Shown here piece after piece: positions 2 through 45,330 of a stretch of 64,000 nt of DNA. The notes below the pieces were generated by a model that made no database searches, was not told where the DNA came from, and saw nothing but the letters and a program-made list of their open reading frames with translations. A program made the position numbers and the translations under genes. Position 1 is the first letter of the stretch. Each line of letters begins with the position of its first letter. The stretch is taken from the NCBI GenBank assembly GCA_018401955.1, contig JAGYJT010000009.1:1871-65870 (forward strand). Reading direction: 5' to 3'. The stretch is from Chitinophagales bacterium. Its GTDB lineage: Bacteria; Bacteroidota; Bacteroidia; Chitinophagales; CAIOSU01.

Positions 2-337
2 GAAGATGGTGGTTTCTACACAGTGCGCACCGATGCTTACTGGCCTAACGATTACGGTCTGTACAACATGGCAGGTAATGTAAGCGAGTGGACTTCTAGC
101 TTCTATCACGAGAACTCTTATGGATTCTTCCATGACATGAACCCGGATATCCGTTATGATGCCGACGAGAACGATCCAATCGCCAAAAAGCGTAAAGTTA
201 TCCGTGGTGGTAGCTGGAAAGATGTAGCTTACTTCTTGCAAGTTAGCACTCGCCACTGGGAGTATCAGGATACCTCAAAATCTTATGTAGGTTTCCGTAA
301 CGTACTTACCTTCTTGGGTCGCTCAATTAACGACTAA
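2..337 (+). CDS. gldK: GldK/PorK-family lipoprotein, C-terminal fragment (5' part lies upstream of the window); SUMF1/FGE-type domain
   Basis: The frame is open from the window edge to the TAA at 335-337. Motifs NMAGNVSEWT, IRGGSW and VGFR are typical of the formylglycine-generating-enzyme fold. It is directly followed by gldL-gldM-gldN. Confidence 0.8.
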   Translation, partial: EDGGFYTVRTDAYWPNDYGLYNMAGNVSEWTSSFYHENSYGFFHDMNPDIRYDADENDPIAKKRKVIRGGSWKDVAYFLQVSTRHWEYQDTSKSYVGFRNVLTFLGRSIND

Positions 338-426
338 GAACAATTCGACAATAAAAGATTAAGCAAAAAAATACAAACAACGTTATTACTAACCTTTAAT
401 CACCCCAAATTAAACGCGTGTAAATT

Positions 427-1158
427 ATGAAAGGACTAGCACTTTTCTTTGAATCTGAAAAAGGCCAGCGGGTAAAGAACCTCATCATTGGTGTAGGTGC
501 ATCTGTTGTGTTGATGGGAGCACTTTTTAAGCTTCAATCTTGGCCGTTTGCGAGTGAGATGCTTATCGCTGGTATGTCAATTGAGGCTTTTATCTTCTTC
601 TTACAAGGTATACTTCCACCTCACGCCAACTACTATTGGGAGAAATTTTACCCAGGTTTGGATGTACACCCTCACTTGGACGAGAATGCCATCCACGCTT
701 CTAAAAATGCCGGTCCTAAAAAATCAGTAACCGAGCAATTGGATACCATGCTTGAAGGAGCAAATGTTGAAACCAAATTGATTGAGAGCCTTGGTCGTAA
801 CTTGGGTAAATTGGGTGATAACGTTGCTAAAATCTCTGAGATTGGTGATGCATCTATTGCTACTAATGAGTATGCTGTTAAAACCAAAGAAGCTATTGGT
901 GCTTTGGGCGAAATGAGCAATGCTTACGCACATGCTACTAGCTCTATTAAAGCCCTAGGTGACTCTACTGTTAAGTTCCAAGAGTACCAAGCACAGATTA
1001 CTGACGTATCTAAAAACCTTGCTGCTATTAATAGCATGTACGAAGTTGAGTTGAAAGACACTACTAGTAGCCTTAAAAACTTGAACAAGAACCTTGCAGG
1101 TTTGAACACAGTTTATGGCAACATGTTGGCTGCTATGACTATGCAAGCACCTAAGTAA
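427..1158 (+). CDS. gldL: Gliding motility / T9SS motor protein GldL (PorL)
   Basis: 243 aa. It has two N-terminal TM helices (ALFKLQSWPFASEMLIAGMSIEAFIFF, with the TM2 Glu) and a helical cytoplasmic tail. It sits between gldK and gldM. Confidence 0.85.
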   Translation: MKGLALFFESEKGQRVKNLIIGVGASVVLMGALFKLQSWPFASEMLIAGMSIEAFIFFLQGILPPHANYYWEKFYPGLDVHPHLDENAIHASKNAGPKKSVTEQLDTMLEGANVETKLIESLGRNLGKLGDNVAKISEIGDASIATNEYAVKTKEAIGALGEMSNAYAHATSSIKALGDSTVKFQEYQAQITDVSKNLAAINSMYEVELKDTTSSLKNLNKNLAGLNTVYGNMLAAMTMQAPK

Positions 1159-1206
1159 CATCTGCTGAATAAGCTTTTGGTTTTAACACTCAAAAAGAAC
1201 TAAACA

Positions 1207-2856
1207 ATGTCTATTCCTAAGGAACCAAGGCAGCAGATGATTAACATGATGTACCTCGTGTTAACCGCCCTGCTTGCCCTTAACGTTTCCGCTGAAGTAC
1301 TGAATGCCTTTAAGCTAGTAGCTGATGGCATGGACAACAGTAACACAGTGGTTGACGAGAAAAACAATACAGTACTTACCGTATTTTCTAGCGCTGCTGG
1401 AAAAGGTACTGCTGAGCAACAGCAGCTTTATCAATCTGCTTTGAAAGCAAAGGAGCTTGCCGATGAATTTGATAAGTATATTATCGATTTGCGCGAAGAG
1501 CTAGTTGCTGCAAGCGGTGGCTGGGTTGAAGGCACTACCGACGAGCTTAAAGTAATGAAAAACTATGATGGCCCAACCCGCTTGATGATTAAGCAAGGTA
1601 AGGGTAAAGAGCTTGAGCAACGTATCAAAGATATGGAAACTCAGTTGCTTGCTTTGCCAGGTTTGTCGCCATCAGATGTTGAAGCTTTGAAGGCTCAAAT
1701 TACTTTGACTACCGAATATAATGTTGCCAATGCTAAAAAGCTAGGTAAAAAAGATTGGGCAGCTTACCACTTCGATCACGTGCCAATTGTAGCGGTTAAC
1801 ACTTTGCTTTACAAATTCCAAGGCGATGCGGTTAACTCTTCAGGTCAGGTAATCGAAACCTTGTACAAGAAGATTGGTGAGATGAAGTATGACTTTGACC
1901 AACTTTCTGCTATGGTTTCAGCTCCTGCTAGCTATGTAATGAAAGGTGATCCGTACAATGCGAACATCTTTTTGACTGCTAGTACTTCAAGTGCCACGCC
2001 TAAAGTATACGAAGGTGCTTTTGATAAGAGCACTGGTGTATATGATGCGAATGGTAGTTTGAAAATTAAGTTGGATAAAAATCCGCTAGTAGGTGGTGGC
2101 AAACAAGTACCACAAGAGCAGATTGTAGGCGGCCAATGGCAGTTTAAAGATGCGAATACCGGTACTGCTGGTGAGCGTGTTAAAACTGGTGTGGTAGAAA
2201 TACCTAAGCCGGGCTCTCAGGGTCAGTTTGAGTACTACCCGTTCGAGTTCCGTTACAACGTTGCTGACCTTGGTGTAGCCGTTTCGCCTGATAAGATGAA
2301 CGTGTTTTACATTGGTGTTGACAACCCGGTAACCATTACCGTAACTGGTATGACTTCTGATAAAGTAAGTGCTAGCTTAACTGGTGGTATGGGCTCTATC
2401 AAGAAGGTATCGGGTAGTGAGTACACTGTAAACGTTAACAAAGTAGGTACTACTTCGGTAGCAGTTAGCGGCGTAGGCCCTGATGGCAAAACCAAGCAGT
2501 TGGATACCAAAGAGTTCCGTATTAAGCGTGTACCAGATCCGATTGCTAAGGTGGGTACCAGCTCAGGCGGTAAAGTACCTGCAGCACAATTTAAAGTACA
2601 GCGTGGCGTTATACCTGTATTGGAAGACTTCGTATTCGACATCAAATTCGTTGTTGTTAGTTTCGAGTTGACCTATGCGGCCAAACGTCAAGATTTGATT
2701 ACCAAGAAGGCTTCTTCGGGCGCCTTTACTGGTGAGATGATCGAGATGCTTAACCGCTCTAAACCTGGTGACGTGTTCTATCTTGATGAGGTTCGTGTAA
2801 AAGGACCGGATGGACAGATACGTAAGTTGCCAAGTATTGCATACACATTGATATAA
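1207..2856 (+). CDS. gldM: Gliding motility / T9SS motor protein GldM (PorM)
   Basis: 549 aa. The N-terminus KEPRQQMINMMYLVLTALLALNVS is the characteristic GldM anchor with a conserved Arg. The rest is a long periplasmic region. Operon position fits. Confidence 0.85.
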   Translation: MSIPKEPRQQMINMMYLVLTALLALNVSAEVLNAFKLVADGMDNSNTVVDEKNNTVLTVFSSAAGKGTAEQQQLYQSALKAKELADEFDKYIIDLREELVAASGGWVEGTTDELKVMKNYDGPTRLMIKQGKGKELEQRIKDMETQLLALPGLSPSDVEALKAQITLTTEYNVANAKKLGKKDWAAYHFDHVPIVAVNTLLYKFQGDAVNSSGQVIETLYKKIGEMKYDFDQLSAMVSAPASYVMKGDPYNANIFLTASTSSATPKVYEGAFDKSTGVYDANGSLKIKLDKNPLVGGGKQVPQEQIVGGQWQFKDANTGTAGERVKTGVVEIPKPGSQGQFEYYPFEFRYNVADLGVAVSPDKMNVFYIGVDNPVTITVTGMTSDKVSASLTGGMGSIKKVSGSEYTVNVNKVGTTSVAVSGVGPDGKTKQLDTKEFRIKRVPDPIAKVGTSSGGKVPAAQFKVQRGVIPVLEDFVFDIKFVVVSFELTYAAKRQDLITKKASSGAFTGEMIEMLNRSKPGDVFYLDEVRVKGPDGQIRKLPSIAYTLI

Positions 2857-2875
2857 TAGTAGAAAATTACAGGCT

Positions 2876-3712
2876 ATGAAACTTAATCGTTGGATATTGA
2901 CACTAGGAGTTGCTGTTGGCATGAGCTTTGGCCTTGCCGCACAAGCTCAAGTGCTTCCTGATGCGCCTCGCGATGGTGCTTATGACGAAGAAACCGTAGG
3001 AGAAAAAGGCATCATTGAATACGACCATATTCGTGATTCGGATGTTTTCTTCAAAATGCGTGTTTGGCGCGTTATTGATGCCCGCGAAAAGATGAACCTT
3101 CCTTTCAAATACCCGAAAGAAATGTTTATCAGCGTATTGCGTGACGCGGCTATTGAAGGTAGCATTAGTGTATACGATGCGATTGACGACGAGTTTACCC
3201 GCAAATTGACTACTGATGAGGTAGCTAAGATTGGTGGTGGTGAGCCCGACACGGTTTACGTGGTTGACCCGATTACTTACGAGGAGAAAATGGAAATTGT
3301 AACTCGTGAGTTTGACCCTACCAAGGTTAACAAGTTCCGTTTGAAAGAAGATTGGATTTTTGACATCGAAACGTCAACCTTGATTGTACGTATCTTGGGT
3401 ATCGCTCCGGTAATGGAAGTGATTGATGACCAAGGTAACTACCGTGGTGACCAGCCTTTGTTCTGGGTATACTACCCTGAAGCTCGTACCGTGCTTTCTC
3501 AGCACCAAGTGTTCAACCCTAAGAACGGTGGATCGCGCAACAGCTGGGAAGACCTTTTTGAGATGCGCTACTTTGCTAGCTACATCATCAAAAAAGAGAA
3601 CGTGTACGACCGTCGTATCCAAGATTACTTGGTGGGCGTAGATGCCTTGTACGAGTCGGATAACATTACCAACGAGATTTTTGACTTCGAGCAAAACCTT
3701 TGGGAATACTAA
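2876..3712 (+). CDS. gldN: Gliding motility / T9SS ring protein GldN (PorN)
   Basis: 278 aa with a signal peptide. It is the last gene of the gldKLMN block and starts only 19 nt after gldM. Confidence 0.85.
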   Translation: MKLNRWILTLGVAVGMSFGLAAQAQVLPDAPRDGAYDEETVGEKGIIEYDHIRDSDVFFKMRVWRVIDAREKMNLPFKYPKEMFISVLRDAAIEGSISVYDAIDDEFTRKLTTDEVAKIGGGEPDTVYVVDPITYEEKMEIVTREFDPTKVNKFRLKEDWIFDIETSTLIVRILGIAPVMEVIDDQGNYRGDQPLFWVYYPEARTVLSQHQVFNPKNGGSRNSWEDLFEMRYFASYIIKKENVYDRRIQDYLVGVDALYESDNITNEIFDFEQNLWEY

Positions 3713-3760
3713 GATTGCCTGTAACAATCGCAAATTAATACGGCTTCGGCCTTACAATAC

Positions 3761-3794
3761 AAGAGCAAGCTCCTTCGGGATGCTTGCTCTTTTT
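3761..3794 (+). terminator. Rho-independent terminator candidate after gldN
   Basis: Perfect 10-bp stem AAGAGCAAGC / GCTTGCTCTT with an 11-nt loop, followed by a T-run. Confidence 0.75.
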
Positions 3795-3811
3795 AGTTAT
3801 AAAGTATTGCC

Positions 3812-4080
3812 CAGCTTACACGTCATTGCGAAGGCACAGCATAGCTTACAAGTAGCGCGTCATTGCGAGGAATGAGGTTGCGGAGCAACTGAATGACGTG
3901 GCAATCCCCTGAGTCGATGGGCGGTGCTCATGCGCGCAATGATGTTTGTGTTTAATGTGTGTGGGCAGCGGTATAGATAATGCAGTGCTTATCGTAAGGG
4001 GATTGCTACAAAATGCCGACTCGTGAAAAACTCGTTGTCATTTTTCGCAATGACGGCATGCGGGTATTTGCAATGACGGG
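3812..4080. repeat. Composite nested inverted repeat (CGTCATTGCGA / TCGCAATGACG type)
   Basis: CGTCATTGCGA(A/G)G lies at 3821-3834 and 3858-3870. Inverted copies lie at 4045-4056 and 4068-4079. GCAATCCCCT at 3901-3910 faces AGGGGATTGC at 3997-4006. Confidence 0.8.
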
Positions 4081-4086
4081 TTGGTT

Positions 4087-5883
4087 TTACCCCTGATGAT
4101 AATGCTTAAACACCACCTCAGCCTTGGCTTTGCCTACTACGGCCATTAGCTCATCTTTGGTAGCGGCCTTTATCTTCTTCTCAGAGCGGAAATGGTTAAG
4201 CAACGCTTGGCTGGTTTTGTCGCCGATGCCCTCAATTTCAGTAAGGCCGGTTTTGAAGGTGCTGTTACTGCGTTTTTGCCTATGGAAGGTAATGGCAAAG
4301 CGGTGTGCTTCGTTGCGCAGTTGCTGTATGAGTTTAAGGCTTTCGGAGCGCTTATTGATGTACAGCGGCATCGGGTCTTCGGGGAAGTATATCTCCTCCA
4401 ACCTTTTAGCAATAGAAACTATGGCCAGTTGCCCACGGATGCCCAACTTATCAATGGCCGCCATGGTGGAGCTTAGCTGGCCTTTGCCGCCGTCAATTAC
4501 TACTAATTGGGGCAGAGGCTTCTCTTCGTCAATAAGGCGCTTATAACGCCTATAAACTACCTCCTCCATGCTGGCAAAGTCGTTGGGGCCTACTACGGTT
4601 TTAATGTTATAGTGGCGATAGTCAGCCTTAGCGGGGCGGCCGTTCTTAAAAACCACCATACTGGCCACCGGGTTGGTGCCTTGTATGTTGCTGTTATCAA
4701 AGCACTCAATGTGCACCGGTAGCTCGGTGAGCCTAAAGTCAGCTTGCAATTGCTCTAGCACCCGGTTGCGGCCCTTTTGGTAGTCACGCTTGTGTTGCTC
4801 CTCCAAAAACTTGCTCTTCATGAACATAGCGTTCTTAAACGAGAGGTCTACCAGCTTTTTCTTATCGCCAATTTGTGGCACGGTAATTTTAATATTCGGG
4901 TCGGGATATTCAATCGGGAACTGCACGTATACCTCCTTCGAGTCGCTATGCATTACACTCCTTATTTCATTAATAGCGAAGACCAGCATGTCCTCCTTCG
5001 TTTCATCAATATTAGTTTTTAGCTCCAGTGCACGGGTGTACACTATGGAGCCGTTCATTACCTTAAAGTAGTTCACAAAGGCGTGTTCCCCCTCTTCGGC
5101 AATGGTAAACACCTCCACATCATCAATACTTGGGTTAACCACCGCCGTGCGCGAGTTGAAGGTTTGCAGGGTTTCAATACGCTTTTTGGTTTCGGCTGCG
5201 GCCTCAAACTCCATGTTTTCGGCTTGCCGCTTCATTTGCTCTTTCAGCTCATTGAGCACTACGTTACTTTGCCCTTTCAGTATCTTAATAATGAGGGCTA
5301 TCTGCTCGTTGTAAGCAGCTTCGTCAAACAGGTTTTCGCAAGGGCCGGCGCAGTTGCCTATGTGATACTCTAGGCACACCCGGTATTTGCCGTTTTCAAT
5401 GGCCTTTTCGCTAAGGTTGAGGCTGCAAGTGCGTATCTTAAAGATTACCCGTATCAGCTCCAGTATACTCTCCACGCGCCTTACTGATGTATAAGGACCT
5501 AAATAAGTACTGCCGTCGTCAATATACCTGCGGGTAAGAAACACGCGCGGAAACCGCTCGTTTTTGATGCAGATAAACGGGTACGACTTATCATCCTTTA
5601 GTTGGATGTTGTATTTGGGTTGGTATTGCTTAATGAGGGAGTTTTCGAGCAGCAAGGCTTCTTGCTCGGTTTGCACTACCGTTACCTCAATTTTGGCAAT
5701 CTTGCGCACCAGCATTCTTAGGCGTGCGCTGTCGTGTTCTTTTTGGAAGTACGATGATACCCGTTTCTTAAGGTCACGTGCCTTGCCTACATATAATATA
5801 CGGTCTTGGTCGTCGGAGTAGCGGTATACGCCCGGCGAATGGGGTAGTGTAGGTTGCGCAGCTTTGAAGGCTTCATTACTCAT
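4087..5883 (-). CDS. uvrC: Excinuclease ABC subunit C
   Basis: 598 aa. It has an N-terminal GIY-YIG motif (GVYRY...ILYVGKA), a central UvrC domain and C-terminal helix-hairpin-helix segments. Confidence 0.95.
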   Translation of the reverse strand: MSNEAFKAAQPTLPHSPGVYRYSDDQDRILYVGKARDLKKRVSSYFQKEHDSARLRMLVRKIAKIEVTVVQTEQEALLLENSLIKQYQPKYNIQLKDDKSYPFICIKNERFPRVFLTRRYIDDGSTYLGPYTSVRRVESILELIRVIFKIRTCSLNLSEKAIENGKYRVCLEYHIGNCAGPCENLFDEAAYNEQIALIIKILKGQSNVVLNELKEQMKRQAENMEFEAAAETKKRIETLQTFNSRTAVVNPSIDDVEVFTIAEEGEHAFVNYFKVMNGSIVYTRALELKTNIDETKEDMLVFAINEIRSVMHSDSKEVYVQFPIEYPDPNIKITVPQIGDKKKLVDLSFKNAMFMKSKFLEEQHKRDYQKGRNRVLEQLQADFRLTELPVHIECFDNSNIQGTNPVASMVVFKNGRPAKADYRHYNIKTVVGPNDFASMEEVVYRRYKRLIDEEKPLPQLVVIDGGKGQLSSTMAAIDKLGIRGQLAIVSIAKRLEEIYFPEDPMPLYINKRSESLKLIQQLRNEAHRFAITFHRQKRSNSTFKTGLTEIEGIGDKTSQALLNHFRSEKKIKAATKDELMAVVGKAKAEVVFKHYHQG

Positions 5884-5895
5884 GCCAAGGGTGGC

Positions 5896-8172
5896 TTATG
5901 GGTTTGGGTTGTCCCATGCATCGGGTGTACCTGTGCTGTTGCCACCGGGTAGGGTATTGGCGGCATCACGATACCTTGAACAATCCAACTCAACAGGAAG
6001 TTTCCCAGGTGGCACGGCGAACTTGATGCTTTCAGAAAACGCCAACGATTTATCGGCATAAAGTTTTTGTGCAAAAAGGCCCCATATAGGCAAAGCCATA
6101 TTGGCGCCCTGGCCCAAAGCCGTACTGCGGAAACGCACTACACGGTCTTCACCGCCGGTCCACACGGCACCGATAAACTGTGGCGTAAAGCCCATAAACC
6201 AGCCATCGGTGTTATCGTTGGTAGTACCTGTTTTGCCACATACATCAGCGGTAAGTTTATAGCGGTAACGTATTCGCCCGCCCGAGCCATGGTTTACCAC
6301 ATAGCGCAACAGTTCTACCATTACATATGCTTGCTCTTCGCTCATTACATCGTGGCTTTCGGGCGATGTTTTGTTTAGCTCCAGCCCATCTTTGGTTTGT
6401 ATGGAGGTAATGTAATTGGGTTGCGTGTATATGCCTTTGTTGGCAAACACGGTATAGGCACCGGCCATTTCCCAAGCGGAAATATCCACTGACCCGAGGC
6501 TAATAGCAGGTACAGGTTCAATTGGTGCGGTTATACCCATTTCGCGCATCATCTGTATTACCACTTCTGGCCCCAGCTGCTTCATCAGGAAAGCTGAGCA
6601 CGTATTTTTTGATTTGGCTAAGCACTCAAATAACGTTAAGCGCTCGTTGCTATACTCGTCTGAGTTTTTAGGCGTCCAATTGTTATAGTCTTCAAAAGTT
6701 ACCGGGGCATCGGTTATTTTAAAGCAAGGCGAGTAGCCGTTTTCGATGGCTTTGCTGTAGATAAACGGCTTAAAGGTTGAGCCTACTTGCCTGCGGCTGT
6801 TTATATGGTCGTATTGAAAGTACTTATAGTCGGCACCGCCAACCCAGGCCATAATGCTGCCATCTTCGGGGTTTACTACCAAAAAGCCGGTTTGCAAAAT
6901 CAAGCGGTGGTAATAAATGCTATCATAAGGACTCATGAGCGTATCCATCTCGCCCTCGTGCGTAAATATTTTCATGCGCACAGGTTGCTTCATTACCTTC
7001 ATTATGGAGTCTTCACCAATACCCGATTCCTTCAAATCCAGATACCTATCGCTCTTTTTAACCAAGGCAATAAAGCGCTTCTTTTCCACGGGGTCGGCAT
7101 ATACATCTTTGTCTTTCCAGTGCTTAAAGAAGTCTTTTTGCAAGGCAGATAAATGCTCGTGCACGGCCGCCTCGGCATGGCGCTGTACTTTACTATGGAT
7201 GGTAGTGTAAATTCTTAACCCGTCGCGATAGATATCGTACTTGGTGCTATCCAGCTTCATGTTTTCGGGCTGGTTGGCCCATTTCATCATCTCTAGGCGC
7301 AATACCTCACGGAAATAGGTAGCAATACCCTCAGTGTGCGTGCTCTTTTGAAAGTTGAGTACTATTGGGCAATCGTTGGGGTTTGATAGGGTTTCTTTAG
7401 TGCTTTCATCAATAAAACCGTAGCGCTCCATTTGGTACAGCACAATATTTCTGCGGGCGGTAGAGCGCTCAGGGAAACGGCGTGGGTTGAACCTTGACGG
7501 GTTTTGCAACATGCCTACCAATACGGCAGCTTCTTCAATATCTAAATTGCCTACGTCTTTTTTGAAGTAGGTGTATGCGGCTGAACTGATACCAAAGGCA
7601 TTGTCGTTAAACTCAACGGTGTTGAGGTACATGGCCAAAATTTCTTCTTTGGTATATCGGCTCTCTAACCTAACCGCGATAACCTGCTCTTTTAGCTTCT
7701 GTTTTAAACGCTCCAACAAGGTGGTTGAACGCACGTGGAACAAGTTAGTGGCCAGCTGCTGGGTGAGTGTACTGCCGCCACCTTTACTTTGAAGCGTAAG
7801 CACACCCGATAAGGCGCGCATGATGGCCCTAGCATCAACGCCGGGGTGTTTTAAGAAACGAATATCTTCGGTGGCCAACAGCGCATTTACCAGGTTGGGC
7901 GAAAGCTGTTCGAACTTTACATTGGTGCGGTTTTGAGAATAGAATTTGCCCAATAAAACTGAATCAGAGGAGTAAATTTCGGTAGCCAGAGCGGTGTGTG
8001 GGTTCTCCAGTTCTTCAAACGTTGGCAAATCGCCCAACGCGCCTAATGATACCATCCAAAAAGTGAAGGGTATAAACAGTATCATTAGCAGAAACAGCAA
8101 CCAAAAACCGATTACCTGCTTATAGTATCGTTTCCAAAGGGCCTTATCAAAAAAGTAGTTTACAATAGCCAT
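5896..8172 (-). CDS. mrcA: Class A penicillin-binding protein (PBP1A), bifunctional transglycosylase/transpeptidase
   Basis: 758 aa with an N-terminal TM helix. The GT51 motif is EDIRFLKHPGVD. Transpeptidase motifs are STFKP, SxN and KTGTTND. Confidence 0.9.
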   Translation of the reverse strand: MAIVNYFFDKALWKRYYKQVIGFWLLFLLMILFIPFTFWMVSLGALGDLPTFEELENPHTALATEIYSSDSVLLGKFYSQNRTNVKFEQLSPNLVNALLATEDIRFLKHPGVDARAIMRALSGVLTLQSKGGGSTLTQQLATNLFHVRSTTLLERLKQKLKEQVIAVRLESRYTKEEILAMYLNTVEFNDNAFGISSAAYTYFKKDVGNLDIEEAAVLVGMLQNPSRFNPRRFPERSTARRNIVLYQMERYGFIDESTKETLSNPNDCPIVLNFQKSTHTEGIATYFREVLRLEMMKWANQPENMKLDSTKYDIYRDGLRIYTTIHSKVQRHAEAAVHEHLSALQKDFFKHWKDKDVYADPVEKKRFIALVKKSDRYLDLKESGIGEDSIMKVMKQPVRMKIFTHEGEMDTLMSPYDSIYYHRLILQTGFLVVNPEDGSIMAWVGGADYKYFQYDHINSRRQVGSTFKPFIYSKAIENGYSPCFKITDAPVTFEDYNNWTPKNSDEYSNERLTLFECLAKSKNTCSAFLMKQLGPEVVIQMMREMGITAPIEPVPAISLGSVDISAWEMAGAYTVFANKGIYTQPNYITSIQTKDGLELNKTSPESHDVMSEEQAYVMVELLRYVVNHGSGGRIRYRYKLTADVCGKTGTTNDNTDGWFMGFTPQFIGAVWTGGEDRVVRFRSTALGQGANMALPIWGLFAQKLYADKSLAFSESIKFAVPPGKLPVELDCSRYRDAANTLPGGNSTGTPDAWDNPNP

Positions 8173-8178
8173 AAATAA

Positions 8179-11016
8179 CTACTTAGGGTATTTGGTGTCA
8201 AAGTATTCAAGGTACGTGCCAACCTCTTTGTTGATGATGATTTTGTTGAAGTTGATATCGCTTATCATCATAAACTCCATAGTACCCTCCGGAAACTTAT
8301 TAAACGTTTCGCTTTGGGTAATGGCATTAAAGTAGTTGCGTGCCTTAGCAAGGTCGTCAAAGCTCTTTACCATAATGAGGGTAATGCCATCGGGCAAAAT
8401 AAGCGGCTCAATTTTCAAACCCTCCAAGCTACGGTTTACATCATTGTACTGGGCAATGGCCGTAGTTATGTCGGTTATTTTCAACGATTGATCTTGCACG
8501 GCTATCATAAAGTAATGCCTGTTTTGGGCATCAAACTCATACCTGAGCATGTTGTTTTCTTTCTTGATAATCTCGTCCTCGCTTTTTTCAATATAGCTCA
8601 GTATTTCCTCTGCCTTGCTTTTTACCTCATCGCTAGGGTATTTGGCAATAATGTCTTTTAAGGCATCCTTATACTCGCCCAAGTCTTTGGTTTGGCCTAC
8701 AATAAAGGCATTCAGCAATTCAAACTTAGGTTTTAGGTAGTTTTCTTTTTTGTACAAGCTATCGGCCAAGTGTATTTGCGTTAACGCCTCCTCTAATCGG
8801 TTTTGCTTATACAACTCAAAGGTAGCCAGGTAGTGCGCATCCACCGCTACTTTAATTTGGTTACTGGCCTCAAGGTAGCTAGGGTCTTTAATAATCATGG
8901 CAGGCTTGCTGGTTGGGTATTTGGCCAGCAGCATCTTTTTGTATTCTTCGGCCTTGGCCGTGTTGCCTAGCTTATCGTATATGAGGTAAAGGTTGTACAG
9001 CACCTCTACATCATATTTACTATCGGGCATGCTCTTAAGCAGTGCTTCAAAGGTTTCGGCAGCTTTGTTGAGGTTGTATATATCGTAGCGATAAATGTTG
9101 CCTAGTTTAAAATAGGCTTCCACCATTTTGCCGCTTATGGCATTCCCTTCTTCGGCACCTGGCAGTCCGGCCAATAGTTTGTCGCGCTCGCCATAGTAAT
9201 CAAACACATCAACCGACAATGGTTGCTCGGTTTTGGTGCTATCGTCGGGGTTATCGTTAAACACTGCCGATTTATCCTTACGGCGCCAGTTGTCTTCTAG
9301 TTTTCTATTGCCCCACCGTTTTACAAAATCGTTGTAGCCAGAGCTTTTGGCTGAGTTGTTATAAAAATACCAATCGCCCGGTTTGCTGCTGCCACCGCCT
9401 TCGTTGCCGGCAGTTGGTTTATTGGTTATAGGGGCAACTGGGGTGTTTTCTTGGCTTTGTTTTTTATTGAATTCATCCTCTTTAGCCTTAAGTATTTTAT
9501 CCACCATTTTAAGCCTATCATCTTCGCTCATCATGGTTATTTGCAATAGGCTATCCTGCTCTTCAATAATGTTTACTTGGTCTACCAAGCGCTGCAATAC
9601 CTCGCTTCTGCCCAATACATCCAAGTAGCGTGGGTCTTCTTGCTCAAGCACCCCAACGGCACTTGCATAGTAGGGTTGTGCCTCAACATACTCTTCTTTT
9701 TCGTAGTGCAGCTGCGCCAGCTTTAGGTATGATAAGGCCTGCTGGTTGGTGTTGGTGGTTGATACCTCAATAGATTGCTCTAGGTAAGCTATTGCTTCAT
9801 CTTTATCGCCAACTTTAAGTGATAGCTCGGCAAGGGCGTAGTATATCTGGTCGTAGAAGTCAACGTTTTTGTTCTCCCTCAACATTTTCTTAAGCAGCTT
9901 CACAATATCTTTCTGCTCCATGCTATTGTCTTGCGAAGCAATGCGGGCCATGCTCATTTTGGCATTAAACGACATGCGGAAATCGGGCCGGCTTTTAAGC
10001 ACTTTTTTGTAATGCTCTACGGCCAAAGCGTTGTCTTGGCGCATTTGGTAAATTTGGGCCAGTATATAGTTGTACCGAGCCTTTTTACGCTTCTTTTTGA
10101 TATTGCTGGTTAACCAAATCAATGGCTGTATGGCCTTATCATAATCGCCTCTTTGCAAGTAATGGTTTGCCCGTGCAATTTCTAGGTCGTCCCACAACCA
10201 GTGCGGAAACTGCTCATCGGCATCAATCAGCGTTAATACGGCTTCAGCTTCTTTGTATTTTTTTAGTGCCGTGTAAGAGTCTACTATCCAAATTTTGGCA
10301 TCGGGGCGCATGGGCTGGTGCTTAAGCCACCACAGGCCATCTTTTTCGTACTCCTCGTTTTCTTTCTTTTTATCGTCATCACCAGCACTGTCAAGGTCTC
10401 CGCCCTCTTCAATTACTTTCAGCTTCTCTTCCATTTCCTTTTCTTGCTGCGCCAGTTTTTGCGAAGCCGTCATGGGTGGGCCTTTTTTCTTTTTGCTCGA
10501 GGAAGATTTGCTTTTGCTTTTTGAAGATGAGGTAGGTTTTTTCTTCTTCTTTTTTTTCTTTTTGCTGCTTTTCCGTATTGGCTTTTCTTTAAACTCGGTG
10601 TTTACAAATTGGAAGGTTTCTAGGGCCGTTACAAAATCCCCCTTCAAGTAATAGCTAATGCCCAGCAGCATGTAGTTGTTATCGGCGTATATGCTCTTCT
10701 CATGGTCTTCAATGCCCGTAGATGATTTCTTGATAATCATGTCTAAATCGGTGCTGTAAGAGGTAGCCAACTCAGGGTTGCGGTCAAGGTATATGGGCAG
10801 CACAGCGGTGTAATCATCAATATTGGCGGCACGCATGTTTTGTTGCACGGCAGCCAATTTAAGGTCGGCATTAAAATAAGCGTTGTTTCGCGCCGTTATA
10901 TCATGGTATACCTGCTTTACCAAGGGTAATTTCTTTTTTTGGATGGCATAGCAACCAGAAAAAGCAATGATGGTAGCACAGGCGGCCCCTATTATTGTTA
11001 ATTTCGCGAGTCTCAA
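8179..11016 (-). CDS. Large TPR lipoprotein, SprE/PorW-like (T9SS-associated); family assignment is tentative
   Basis: 945 aa with lipobox AFSGC. The N-terminal HDITARNNAYFNADL block resembles what I recall of SprE/PorW N-termini. Many TPR-like helices are present. An internal K/S-rich tract reads KKKKKKKKKPTSSSKSKSKSSSSKKKK. Confidence 0.55.
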   Translation of the reverse strand: MRLAKLTIIGAACATIIAFSGCYAIQKKKLPLVKQVYHDITARNNAYFNADLKLAAVQQNMRAANIDDYTAVLPIYLDRNPELATSYSTDLDMIIKKSSTGIEDHEKSIYADNNYMLLGISYYLKGDFVTALETFQFVNTEFKEKPIRKSSKKKKKKKKKPTSSSKSKSKSSSSKKKKGPPMTASQKLAQQEKEMEEKLKVIEEGGDLDSAGDDDKKKENEEYEKDGLWWLKHQPMRPDAKIWIVDSYTALKKYKEAEAVLTLIDADEQFPHWLWDDLEIARANHYLQRGDYDKAIQPLIWLTSNIKKKRKKARYNYILAQIYQMRQDNALAVEHYKKVLKSRPDFRMSFNAKMSMARIASQDNSMEQKDIVKLLKKMLRENKNVDFYDQIYYALAELSLKVGDKDEAIAYLEQSIEVSTTNTNQQALSYLKLAQLHYEKEEYVEAQPYYASAVGVLEQEDPRYLDVLGRSEVLQRLVDQVNIIEEQDSLLQITMMSEDDRLKMVDKILKAKEDEFNKKQSQENTPVAPITNKPTAGNEGGGSSKPGDWYFYNNSAKSSGYNDFVKRWGNRKLEDNWRRKDKSAVFNDNPDDSTKTEQPLSVDVFDYYGERDKLLAGLPGAEEGNAISGKMVEAYFKLGNIYRYDIYNLNKAAETFEALLKSMPDSKYDVEVLYNLYLIYDKLGNTAKAEEYKKMLLAKYPTSKPAMIIKDPSYLEASNQIKVAVDAHYLATFELYKQNRLEEALTQIHLADSLYKKENYLKPKFELLNAFIVGQTKDLGEYKDALKDIIAKYPSDEVKSKAEEILSYIEKSEDEIIKKENNMLRYEFDAQNRHYFMIAVQDQSLKITDITTAIAQYNDVNRSLEGLKIEPLILPDGITLIMVKSFDDLAKARNYFNAITQSETFNKFPEGTMEFMMISDINFNKIIINKEVGTYLEYFDTKYPK

Positions 11017-44285: not shown

Positions 44286-44651
44286 ATGAATAAAAAGACC
44301 ATATTGATAGCCGACGACGACCAAGACATTTTGGACTTAGTTGCTGCTTTGCTTATGGGTAGTGGTTATCGCGTGCATACCTCATACAACGGTGATGGCC
44401 TGGAGGATTTAGCCTCTGACGAATTGCCAGATTTGCTAATACTCGATATTAGGATGAGACATGGCAGAAATGGGAAGGAAATAGCTACACGGTTGAAACA
44501 AAATAATGCTACCAAAGACATTCCTATCATACTTATATCGGCCAACGATGATATAGTTGAAGCAGTTGAAGTATCAGGCGCTGACGCCTTTGTGCCCAAA
44601 CCCTTTAATGTGAAACAATTGCTAGAGGTGGTTAGGCAGTTTGTAGGATAG
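44286..44651 (+). CDS. Stand-alone response-regulator receiver domain
   Basis: 121 aa. It has the ADDD acidic pocket, phospho-acceptor D in LLILDIRM, and conserved K (VPKP). Confidence 0.8.
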   Translation: MNKKTILIADDDQDILDLVAALLMGSGYRVHTSYNGDGLEDLASDELPDLLILDIRMRHGRNGKEIATRLKQNNATKDIPIILISANDDIVEAVEVSGADAFVPKPFNVKQLLEVVRQFVG

Positions 44652-44654
44652 GAG

Positions 44655-45170
44655 TTAATCCAGTTTTATCCAAAAGTAACAATGTTGCCCTCGGTAGTTA
44701 CCTTGATTATCGTATATATTGTAAACAGGAGCAAAAGCATAGTTACTTCGTTCTAAAATCTTCAATTCTTCATTCCATTTCCATTCTTCATTTACCCTAA
44801 TGGCCTTTATATTTTTCTGTTTTAGAGAAGTAGCATAAACAATTTCAATCTTCTCTTCATAGGTTATAGGATCAATTACATAAACCGTATCAGGATATGG
44901 GTCAACCTCAAAAATGTACATTTTGGGGTTTACGGGCTTATTGGAGGTTGCTTCATAACCAATCAGTTTACCAGATTCAAAATCATCTAGTAGCCTCTCC
45001 AACCAATGTTTTCCTCCAGCAACCTGAATGTAGTTTTGCAACCACGGTATGCTTGTTTTGCTTGCGGCTTCTATTGTTAGGTCGTATACAATCTTCTTCG
45101 ATAGGGTATCTTGGGCACTAGCAGCATAGCCAAATGTAAGGGTAATGATTATGGTTAGTATGGTTTTCAT
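44655..45170 (-). CDS. Short secreted GldN/PorN-domain paralog
   Basis: The start is moved to MKTILTIIITLTFGYAASAQ. PDTVYVIDPITYEEKIEIV matches GldN PDTVYVVDPITYEEKMEIV at 17 of 19 positions. DNQGNYRG..FWI aligns with DDQGNYRG..FWV. It ends where GldN still has about 75 more residues. Confidence 0.7.
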   Translation of the reverse strand: MKTILTIIITLTFGYAASAQDTLSKKIVYDLTIEAASKTSIPWLQNYIQVAGGKHWLERLLDDFESGKLIGYEATSNKPVNPKMYIFEVDPYPDTVYVIDPITYEEKIEIVYATSLKQKNIKAIRVNEEWKWNEELKILERSNYAFAPVYNIYDNQGNYRGQHCYFWIKLD

Positions 45171-45252
45171 AAAGCCGTTTTCAATAGAAAACGCCGAAGT
45201 ACCAAAAAGATACAATGATTGGTTAAGCTGGTTTGCTAAACATTCATCACTT

Positions 45253-45293
45253 TTAACCCTTAACCCTTAACCCTTAACCCGTAACCCGTAACC
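45253..45293. repeat. Tandem heptamer microsatellite (TTAACCC)4(GTAACCC)2
   Basis: Read directly: ttaaccc ttaaccc ttaaccc ttaaccc gtaaccc gtaacca. Confidence 0.95.
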
Positions 45294-45330
45294 AAAAAAT
45301 AAAGGGAGCCAGCTCTCGCTAACTCCCTTT
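45293..45330 (-). terminator. Rho-independent terminator of rpoD
   Basis: On the minus strand: AAAGGGAG-loop-CTCCCTTT followed by ATTTTTTGG. Confidence 0.7.

Follow-up and report, generated by a model that had tools for sequence, protein, structure and literature searches.

What is the role of a gene encoding a GldN-like protein of only 171 amino acids in a bacterium that also possesses a full-length gldN? This question is raised by a stretch of 64,000 nucleotides from a Chitinophagales bacterium (assembly GCA_018401955.1, contig JAGYJT010000009.1, positions 1,871 to 65,870), hereafter called the window, in which the short gene lies next to rpoD and 41 kb from gldKLMN (44.6 kb versus 2-3712 in the window). 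The gene is genuine and intact, and its product is a small exported protein. The explanation that we consider best, and hold with rather better than even confidence, is that this protein is a functional GldN-core module, exported by the Sec pathway, free in the periplasm and probably paired, and that it is neither a ring subunit nor a cut-down gldN.

The relationship to GldN, named PorN in Porphyromonas gingivalis, is visible in a direct comparison. BLASTP aligned residues 93-168 of the short protein with residues 124-198 of the GldN encoded in the window, with 34 of 76 positions identical (45%, E 2e-19). The aligned blocks comprise PDTVYVIDPITYEEKIEIV versus PDTVYVVDPITYEEKMEIV, identical at 17 of 19 positions as already pointed out in an earlier note on this DNA, and DNQGNYRGQHCYFWI versus DDQGNYRGDQPLFWV, identical at 9 of 15. 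The short protein stops three residues past the FW of the LFW motif, and approximately 77 C-terminal residues of GldN have no counterpart, which agrees with the earlier description of a missing C-terminal part. When a profile of 26 short forms was compared with one of 13 canonical GldN proteins using hhalign, the match extended over 125 columns with a probability of 99.9% and an E-value of 2.7e-34, residues 51-171 of the short protein corresponding to residues 79-207 of GldN; the first 30 or so mature residues remained unaligned at the sequence-profile level. Against the PDB, the short-family profile retrieved the P. gingivalis PorN chains (E 1e-9; profile positions 52-169 matching PorN 95-214 of 359), a result for which the profile was needed, as the same search with the single sequence found nothing.

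The structure predicted by AlphaFold2 (AF2) from the short-family alignment had a mean predicted local distance difference test score (pLDDT) of 84.1 and a predicted template modelling score (pTM) of 0.69. In a Foldseek search with this model, five PorN chains (7PVH, 9OTS, 9MZU, 9MYJ) were the only PDB matches at E <= 1e-3, with a probability of 1.00 and TM scores of 0.49-0.51, all other matches having E-values of 0.67 or more. Profile comparison and modelling together show that the short protein is homologous to the PorN core and similar to it in predicted fold, with about two-thirds of the core present. The view that it is a GldN/PorN-domain paralog is therefore borne out by the hhalign, PDB profile and Foldseek matches, and the predicted structure has the PorN-type core fold (pLDDT 84, TM about 0.5).

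The model contains a strand at residues 24-32, a hairpin formed by residues 94-99 and 106-111, three long strands at 121-133, 138-153 and 159-170, and four helices. PorN has the topology beta1-alpha1-4-beta2-beta3-beta4-alpha5-alpha6-beta5 (PMC8861641). The modelled short protein would thus correspond to beta1 through beta4, with alpha5-alpha6-beta5 absent. Export, which had been proposed earlier, is supported by a predicted signal peptide at residues 1-19. Cleavage by signal peptidase I is predicted to expose Gln20, which fits the Q-rule for signal peptide cleavage in Bacteroidetes (PMC5837995), and Q20-D21-T22-L23 are invariant across the QDTL-type subfamily to which the protein belongs. As there is no Cys, the protein is not a lipoprotein. 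No match to the C-terminal domain (CTD) families of type IX secretion systems (T9SS), either Por_Secre_tail or type B, was found in the short protein, whose chain ends in FWIKLD right after the core. Having a signal peptide and lacking a T9SS CTD, it should remain in the periplasm.

The missing parts are those by which PorN is tied to its partners. The numbering used in the structural study of the PorK-PorN complex is that of the full-length protein minus 21, and the short protein ends opposite PorN 214 of 359, approximately 193 in that numbering. The PorN elements that anchor it to PorK are an N-terminal helix (25-37), a loop (38-47), a beta-turn (156-162), a C-terminal helix (249-270) and a distal loop (271-283); the N-helix, the C-helix and the distal loop have been described, from cryo-electron microscopy, as crucial in ring formation and in the anchoring of PorN to PorK (PMC12421860). 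In the same study D220 could be cross-linked to PorK, A241 was cross-linked to PorM, and contacts between PorN molecules lay partly in region 9 (E235/N236). According to another study, PorM and cargo CTDs are bound by the folded core of PorN, and PorK by its disordered C-terminal region (PMC8861641). The short protein lacks the C-terminal helix 249-270, the distal loop 271-283, the D220 region, the A241 region in contact with PorM and the PorN-PorN region 9. The N-terminal helix 25-37 is absent as well: between Q20, the first residue of the mature chain, and residue 24, where beta1 begins in the model, a docking helix has no space. The sole PorK-anchoring element kept is the beta2-beta3 turn (PorN F156-D162), with a different sequence. 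In PorN, W154 packs against L263 of the C-terminal helix (PMC12421860); it corresponds to W130 of the short protein, one of four near-invariant positions in the short family.

The short form is the unit of a much larger family. An exhaustive phmmer scan of 1.84 billion representative sequences yielded 232 related clusters (50% identity) at E <= 1e-3, and many proteins of 165-195 residues matched the query over residues 1-171. The best 150 of these 232 hits, together with three found earlier (n = 153), were sorted into classes with a hidden Markov model (HMM) built for the short form, and by whether the GldN C-terminal segment was present. Two tandem modules were found in 108 of them (320-410 aa), a single short module in 35 (about 165-200 aa), three hits in 2, and the canonical GldN architecture in 8. 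All 26 short forms align over their full length and end just past LFW; about a third of the single short forms carry a lipoprotein box. Every named hit is annotated "hypothetical protein", and a search of the searchable literature on GldN-like or PorN-like proteins, GldN paralogs and gldO turned up no account of either short or tandem forms. By its sequence, the short protein is thus a member of a large, uncharacterised Bacteroidota family of modules of about 150 residues that occur alone, in adjacent gene pairs or, most often, fused twice.

Within this family, the QDTL-type subfamily of the query is small and divergent, with 4 word-index hits and 5 loci in GTDB representative genomes; its members come from metagenome-assembled genomes (MAGs) of Sphingobacteriales and Chitinophagales. 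A soil-metagenome contig (L002) carries two adjacent 171-aa paralogs, P0005 and P0004, at 3412-3927 and 3963-4478, the unfused counterpart of the tandem proteins. Another locus (L022) contains four adjacent two-module genes of 378, 381, 375 and 394 aa at 5771-10902, a lineage-specific paralog array. A tandem-type homolog of Saprospiraceae (L011, 5203-5514) shows an in-frame stop directly ahead of the LFY motif (NGNFLF*APLFY), which may be real or an assembly error. In a neighbour-joining tree (119-column core, 144 domains, 200 bootstraps) the query groups with the short forms and apart from canonical GldN; since all deep nodes have bootstrap values of 6% or less, the tree speaks neither for nor against a single clade of short forms.

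From these observations we propose the following mode of action. The protein would be exported by Sec, placing approximately 152 mature residues in the periplasm, where they would form the N-terminal two-thirds of the PorN folded core: beta1, the helical layer, the DTxxVxDPxTxEE hairpin and three long strands up to LFW. With the segments that contact PorK, PorM and PorN absent, it could probably not serve as a ring or track subunit, and would act instead as a free periplasmic binding module, probably a dimer. The sheet face around W130, which in PorN is covered by the protein's own C-terminal helix, would presumably be free here since no such helix is supplied in cis, and could bind a partner in trans. 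The leading candidate for this partner would be a T9SS component or cargo, given the reported binding of PorM and of cargo CTDs by the PorN core. The predominance of tandem fusions, the occurrence of adjacent gene pairs and the AF2 model of the tandem protein P0007 (pLDDT 85, pTM 0.81 versus 0.69 for a single module) suggest that the modules work in pairs, and the higher pTM of P0007 is consistent with a fixed two-module unit. The periplasmic location, dimerisation, the role of the vacated sheet face and any connection with the T9SS are inferred, and the mechanism as a whole is deduced from structural considerations.

Several points weigh against this proposal. The Pfam GldN model PF19841 matched the short protein with 17.3 bits only (E 0.0038; profile positions 29-145 of 228), below the gathering score of 23 bits, and NCBIfam models, TIGR03523 (cut-off 85.9 bits) included, gave no match at E <= 1. 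The homology to GldN therefore had to rest on profiles and structure: family HMMs did not recover it, and the profile-profile and PDB profile searches did. Several relatives pass the PF19841 threshold, among them P0009 (44.7 bits) and P0011 (34.8 bits). Over 8 family loci no conserved gene neighbourhood was found, and none that links members to T9SS or gliding genes or to gldKLMN. Dimerisation is argued from architecture and one pTM value only. Weak docking on GldK may be conceivable through the structurally retained beta2-beta3 turn. Finally, 3 of about eight subfamily orthologs are disrupted. In a Sphingobacteriales MAG (L003) the codon for the near-invariant W130 is replaced by TAG at 6388-6390, a change that is probably real, as the truncated product is seen on 15 contigs. 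In L004 there is an in-frame stop at about 1009, on a contig whose low coverage makes a sequencing error possible, and in L009 a frameshift and a degraded EEW motif at about 6185-6275. With three relatives carrying disrupted copies, the short gene is accessory, having been lost or disrupted in part of the lineage; its function is dispensable and could be minor.

Among the alternatives, it is unlikely, although worth serious attention, that the GldN core is a general-purpose scaffold, reused in the periplasm for something that has nothing to do with the T9SS or gliding. No examined member adjoins T9SS genes, the neighbourhoods being of housekeeping type and unconserved, and lineage-specific paralog arrays such as the four genes in a row of L022 fit diversified binding proteins better than they fit parts of a machine. 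The converse extension, in which single and tandem GldN cores make up a hitherto overlooked class of accessory factors, soluble or lipid-anchored, that assist the T9SS and gliding machinery in the periplasm, is a speculation to which we give somewhat less weight still. Such factors might capture a partner in trans via the helix-binding sheet face, be it a cargo CTD, the GldM tip or the GldN C-terminal helix, and so chaperone cargo or regulate the assembly of the GldK/N/J track, with the paralog arrays giving specificity.

We consider it improbable that the short protein modulates the ring or track itself, by inserting into, capping or competing for the GldN position on GldK/GldN(/GldJ) and thereby tuning secretion or gliding. 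The shared core fold, the retention of the beta2-beta3 hairpin, with the turn by which PorN touches PorK, and the co-occurrence with canonical gldKLMN in the window and in two other genomes (L003 with L006, L004 with L007) would be compatible with this role. However, the N-helix, the C-helix, the distal loop and the D220 and A241 regions are absent, the gene is unlinked to gldKLMN in every genome examined, and three relatives have a disrupted copy of it alongside an intact gldN (which in the L003 and L004 genomes lies on other contigs, L006 and L007). The earlier suggestion that the protein caps or modulates the GldK/GldN ring thus lacks structural support, the PorK-docking elements and the PorM-contact region lying outside the protein save for the retained beta-turn.

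We regard it as very improbable that the short gene is a decaying duplicate or pseudogene remnant of gldN. This reading is suggested by the reduced length relative to GldN, the low G+C content and the nonsense codon or frameshift in three related copies. However, the window copy is intact and has kept its signal peptide. On a metagenomic scaffold of 418 kb (L001), an ortholog of 171 aa with 78% identity is likewise flanked by rpoD on one side and by the response regulator and then xerD on the other, and the known orthologs in relatives (identity 78% for P0002, 70% for L003 and 44-37% for P0005 and P0004) have the same start and length. The ratio of nonsynonymous to synonymous substitution rates (dN/dS) of the short gene is 0.10 versus L001 and 0.16 versus L003; for neighbouring genes compared between the window and L001 it is 0.04-0.07 where computable, rpoD being 100% identical and the synonymous rate of the Rieske gene saturated. 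These values show that the gene is intact and under purifying selection. Even in L003 the codons downstream of the stop still have a dN/dS of 0.13-0.20, so that the lesion must be recent, and the short form is moreover the unit of a large family.

A recent duplication of, or gene conversion from, the resident gldN was also ruled out, because the DNA of the 19-aa block is identical at only 43 of 57 positions (75%), with most third positions changed. The 17/19 identity of the peptides hence reflects selection on the motif, which is conserved in short, tandem and canonical forms, including canonical GldN proteins from other taxa. Identity of the short protein to the GldN of its host's clade was slightly higher (0.30 versus 0.24); a special affinity to the host's GldN was ruled out, the difference being a central-sequence effect, as 86% of 273 other short or tandem domains were likewise closer to the same three GldN proteins. 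The word "truncated", with its implication of a copy of the resident gldN, was therefore not upheld, and neither was the proposal of a decaying duplicate.

The low G+C content that had drawn attention to the gene is real: 36.2% (33.7% at third codon positions), the lowest among the 52 open reading frames (ORFs) of the window (mean 43.5%, standard deviation 2.9, z about -2.5), versus 47.2% for the neighbouring rpoD. Orthologs at five other loci are also 4-9 points below their surroundings, and the low content is accompanied by low G+C at second codon positions, matching a composition rich in Lys, Ile, Asn, Tyr and Glu; it is thus a family trait that follows amino-acid composition. Recent horizontal acquisition of a fragment, to which the low G+C and a tyrosine-recombinase gene approximately 530 bp away, beyond the response-regulator gene, might point, is hardly credible for the following reasons: L001 keeps the arrangement rpoD - short gene - (response regulator) - xerD, and L003 the rpoD - short gene part of it; the recombinase, with 92% identity and a dN/dS of 0.04, is consistent with a housekeeping XerD; the orthologs are equally poor in G+C; and a tblastn search of plasmid and phage collections with the short protein gave no match.

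The coordinates of the gene, of its parts and of related features are given in the table. One gene caller picked an alternative TTG start 45 nt upstream, which would give 186 aa. The protein begins with MKTILT, the MKTIL start is common to all orthologs, and the additional 45 nt carry conserved non-coding elements. Indeed, the final 45 nt or so before the ATG are conserved in three genomes, and the stretch between TGTATCTTTTT and the rpoD terminator is variable. TGTATCTTTTT resembles TAnnTTTG, which we take to be the -7 consensus of Bacteroidota. The hairpin next to the start codon is identical in the window, L001 and L003, has a predicted energy of -14.4 kcal/mol (z -3.3) and is unique in the window. 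The conserved rpoD terminator, together with the conserved candidate promoter and hairpin before the ATG, argues for independent transcription of the short gene, which is possibly regulated. An Rfam scan around the gene gave only sub-threshold chance hits. Between the rpoD terminator and the conserved upstream region, 5.9 tandem copies of the heptamer TTAACCC are found at 45253-45293 (GGGTTAA/GGGTTAC on the minus strand, telomere-like); being partly present in L001 and absent in L003, this repeat is a fast-changing spacer. On the other side, a stand-alone receiver-domain response regulator of 121 aa (44286-44651, plus strand) is convergent with the short gene, their stop codons lying 3 nt apart. 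It is kept in L001 and appears to be absent at the same place in L003, and is for that reason probably no functional partner. The gldKLMN operon is only partly contained in the window because the 3' end of gldK runs off its start.

Table. Features of the short GldN-core gene, its surroundings, the gldKLMN genes of the window and named relatives.
Feature	Position in the window, or accession	Strand	Basis and remarks
Coding sequence of the stand-alone GldN-core protein, 171 aa	44655..45170, stop codon included	-	ORF list and orthologs
Predicted signal peptide, residues 1-19 MKTILTIIITLTFGYAASA, then QDTL	45114..45170	-	Read from sequence; AF2 helix at 2-16
Region homologous to the GldN/PorN folded core, residues 51-171	44658..45020	-	= GldN 79-207 of 278; PorN 95-214 of 359
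Beta-hairpin motif DTxxVxDPxTxEE, residues 93-111 PDTVYVIDPITYEEKIEIV	44838..44894	-	Family-wide; 17/19 aa, 43/57 nt versus gldN
Hairpin/palindrome CGTTTTC-TATT-GAAAACG, perfect, 7-bp stem	45176..45193	-	5 nt upstream of ATG; candidate 5' untranslated, translational or operator element
Candidate Bacteroidota-type -7 promoter element TGTATCTTTTT	45204..45214	-	Conserved in three genomes
Intrinsic terminator of upstream rpoD, 13-bp stem then T-run	45301..45330	-	Stands between rpoD and the short gene; almost unchanged in L001 and L003
gldK C-terminal end, FGE-sulfatase-like (...VIRGGSWKD...)	2-334	+	Continues beyond window start
gldL	427-1158		Window ORF
gldM	1207-2856		Window ORF
Canonical gldN, full-length comparator, 278 aa	2876..3712	+	TIGR03523 190 bits (cut-off 85.9); PDB PorN matches E 1e-14
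Single short relatives, 165-200 aa	CAN5210039.1 and neighbour BH09BAC1_20650		Soil metagenome; PF19841 hits, annotated hypothetical
Tandem relatives, 320-410 aa	e.g. MK207_01690		Saprospiraceae MAG; PF19841 hits, annotated hypothetical

Up to now, GldN/PorN has been regarded as a ring or track subunit that serves one purpose and whose fold occurs in no other protein. The locus described here points to hundreds of sequence clusters in which the GldN core is employed singly or in duplicate and the parts binding it to GldK are missing. Should members of this family prove to contact T9SS components or cargo, a secretion and motility machine whose structure is being actively studied would gain new soluble players; should they not, the "PorN fold" would have a wider use in the periplasm. 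In both cases, such genes should no longer be annotated as truncated gldN.

With the GldN/PorN ring or track subunit (TIGR03523, PF19841) the short protein shares a core consisting of a beta-sheet and a helical layer, the DTxxVxDPxTxEE hairpin, the RxxExW, AP and G..RG..PLFW motifs, Sec export and occurrence in Bacteroidota. In contrast to that subunit, it ends at LFW and is devoid of alpha5-alpha6-beta5, the C-terminal helix, the PorK-anchoring loop and the N-terminal docking helix; its gene is 41 kb from gldKLMN and its score falls under the family cut-offs. GldO of Flavobacterium johnsoniae is a full-length paralog of GldN, encoded adjacent to gldN, very similar to GldN and partly redundant with it. 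Like GldO, the short protein is encoded by a second GldN-domain gene in a genome that already carries gldN; the contrast with the full-length, adjacent GldO type drawn in the earlier note nevertheless stands, as the short protein is core-only (171 versus 278 aa), 41 kb away and distant in sequence. With the other stand-alone and tandem cores it shares the module boundaries, from the signal peptide or lipobox to LFW, and among them the window protein is predicted to be a soluble substrate of signal peptidase I.
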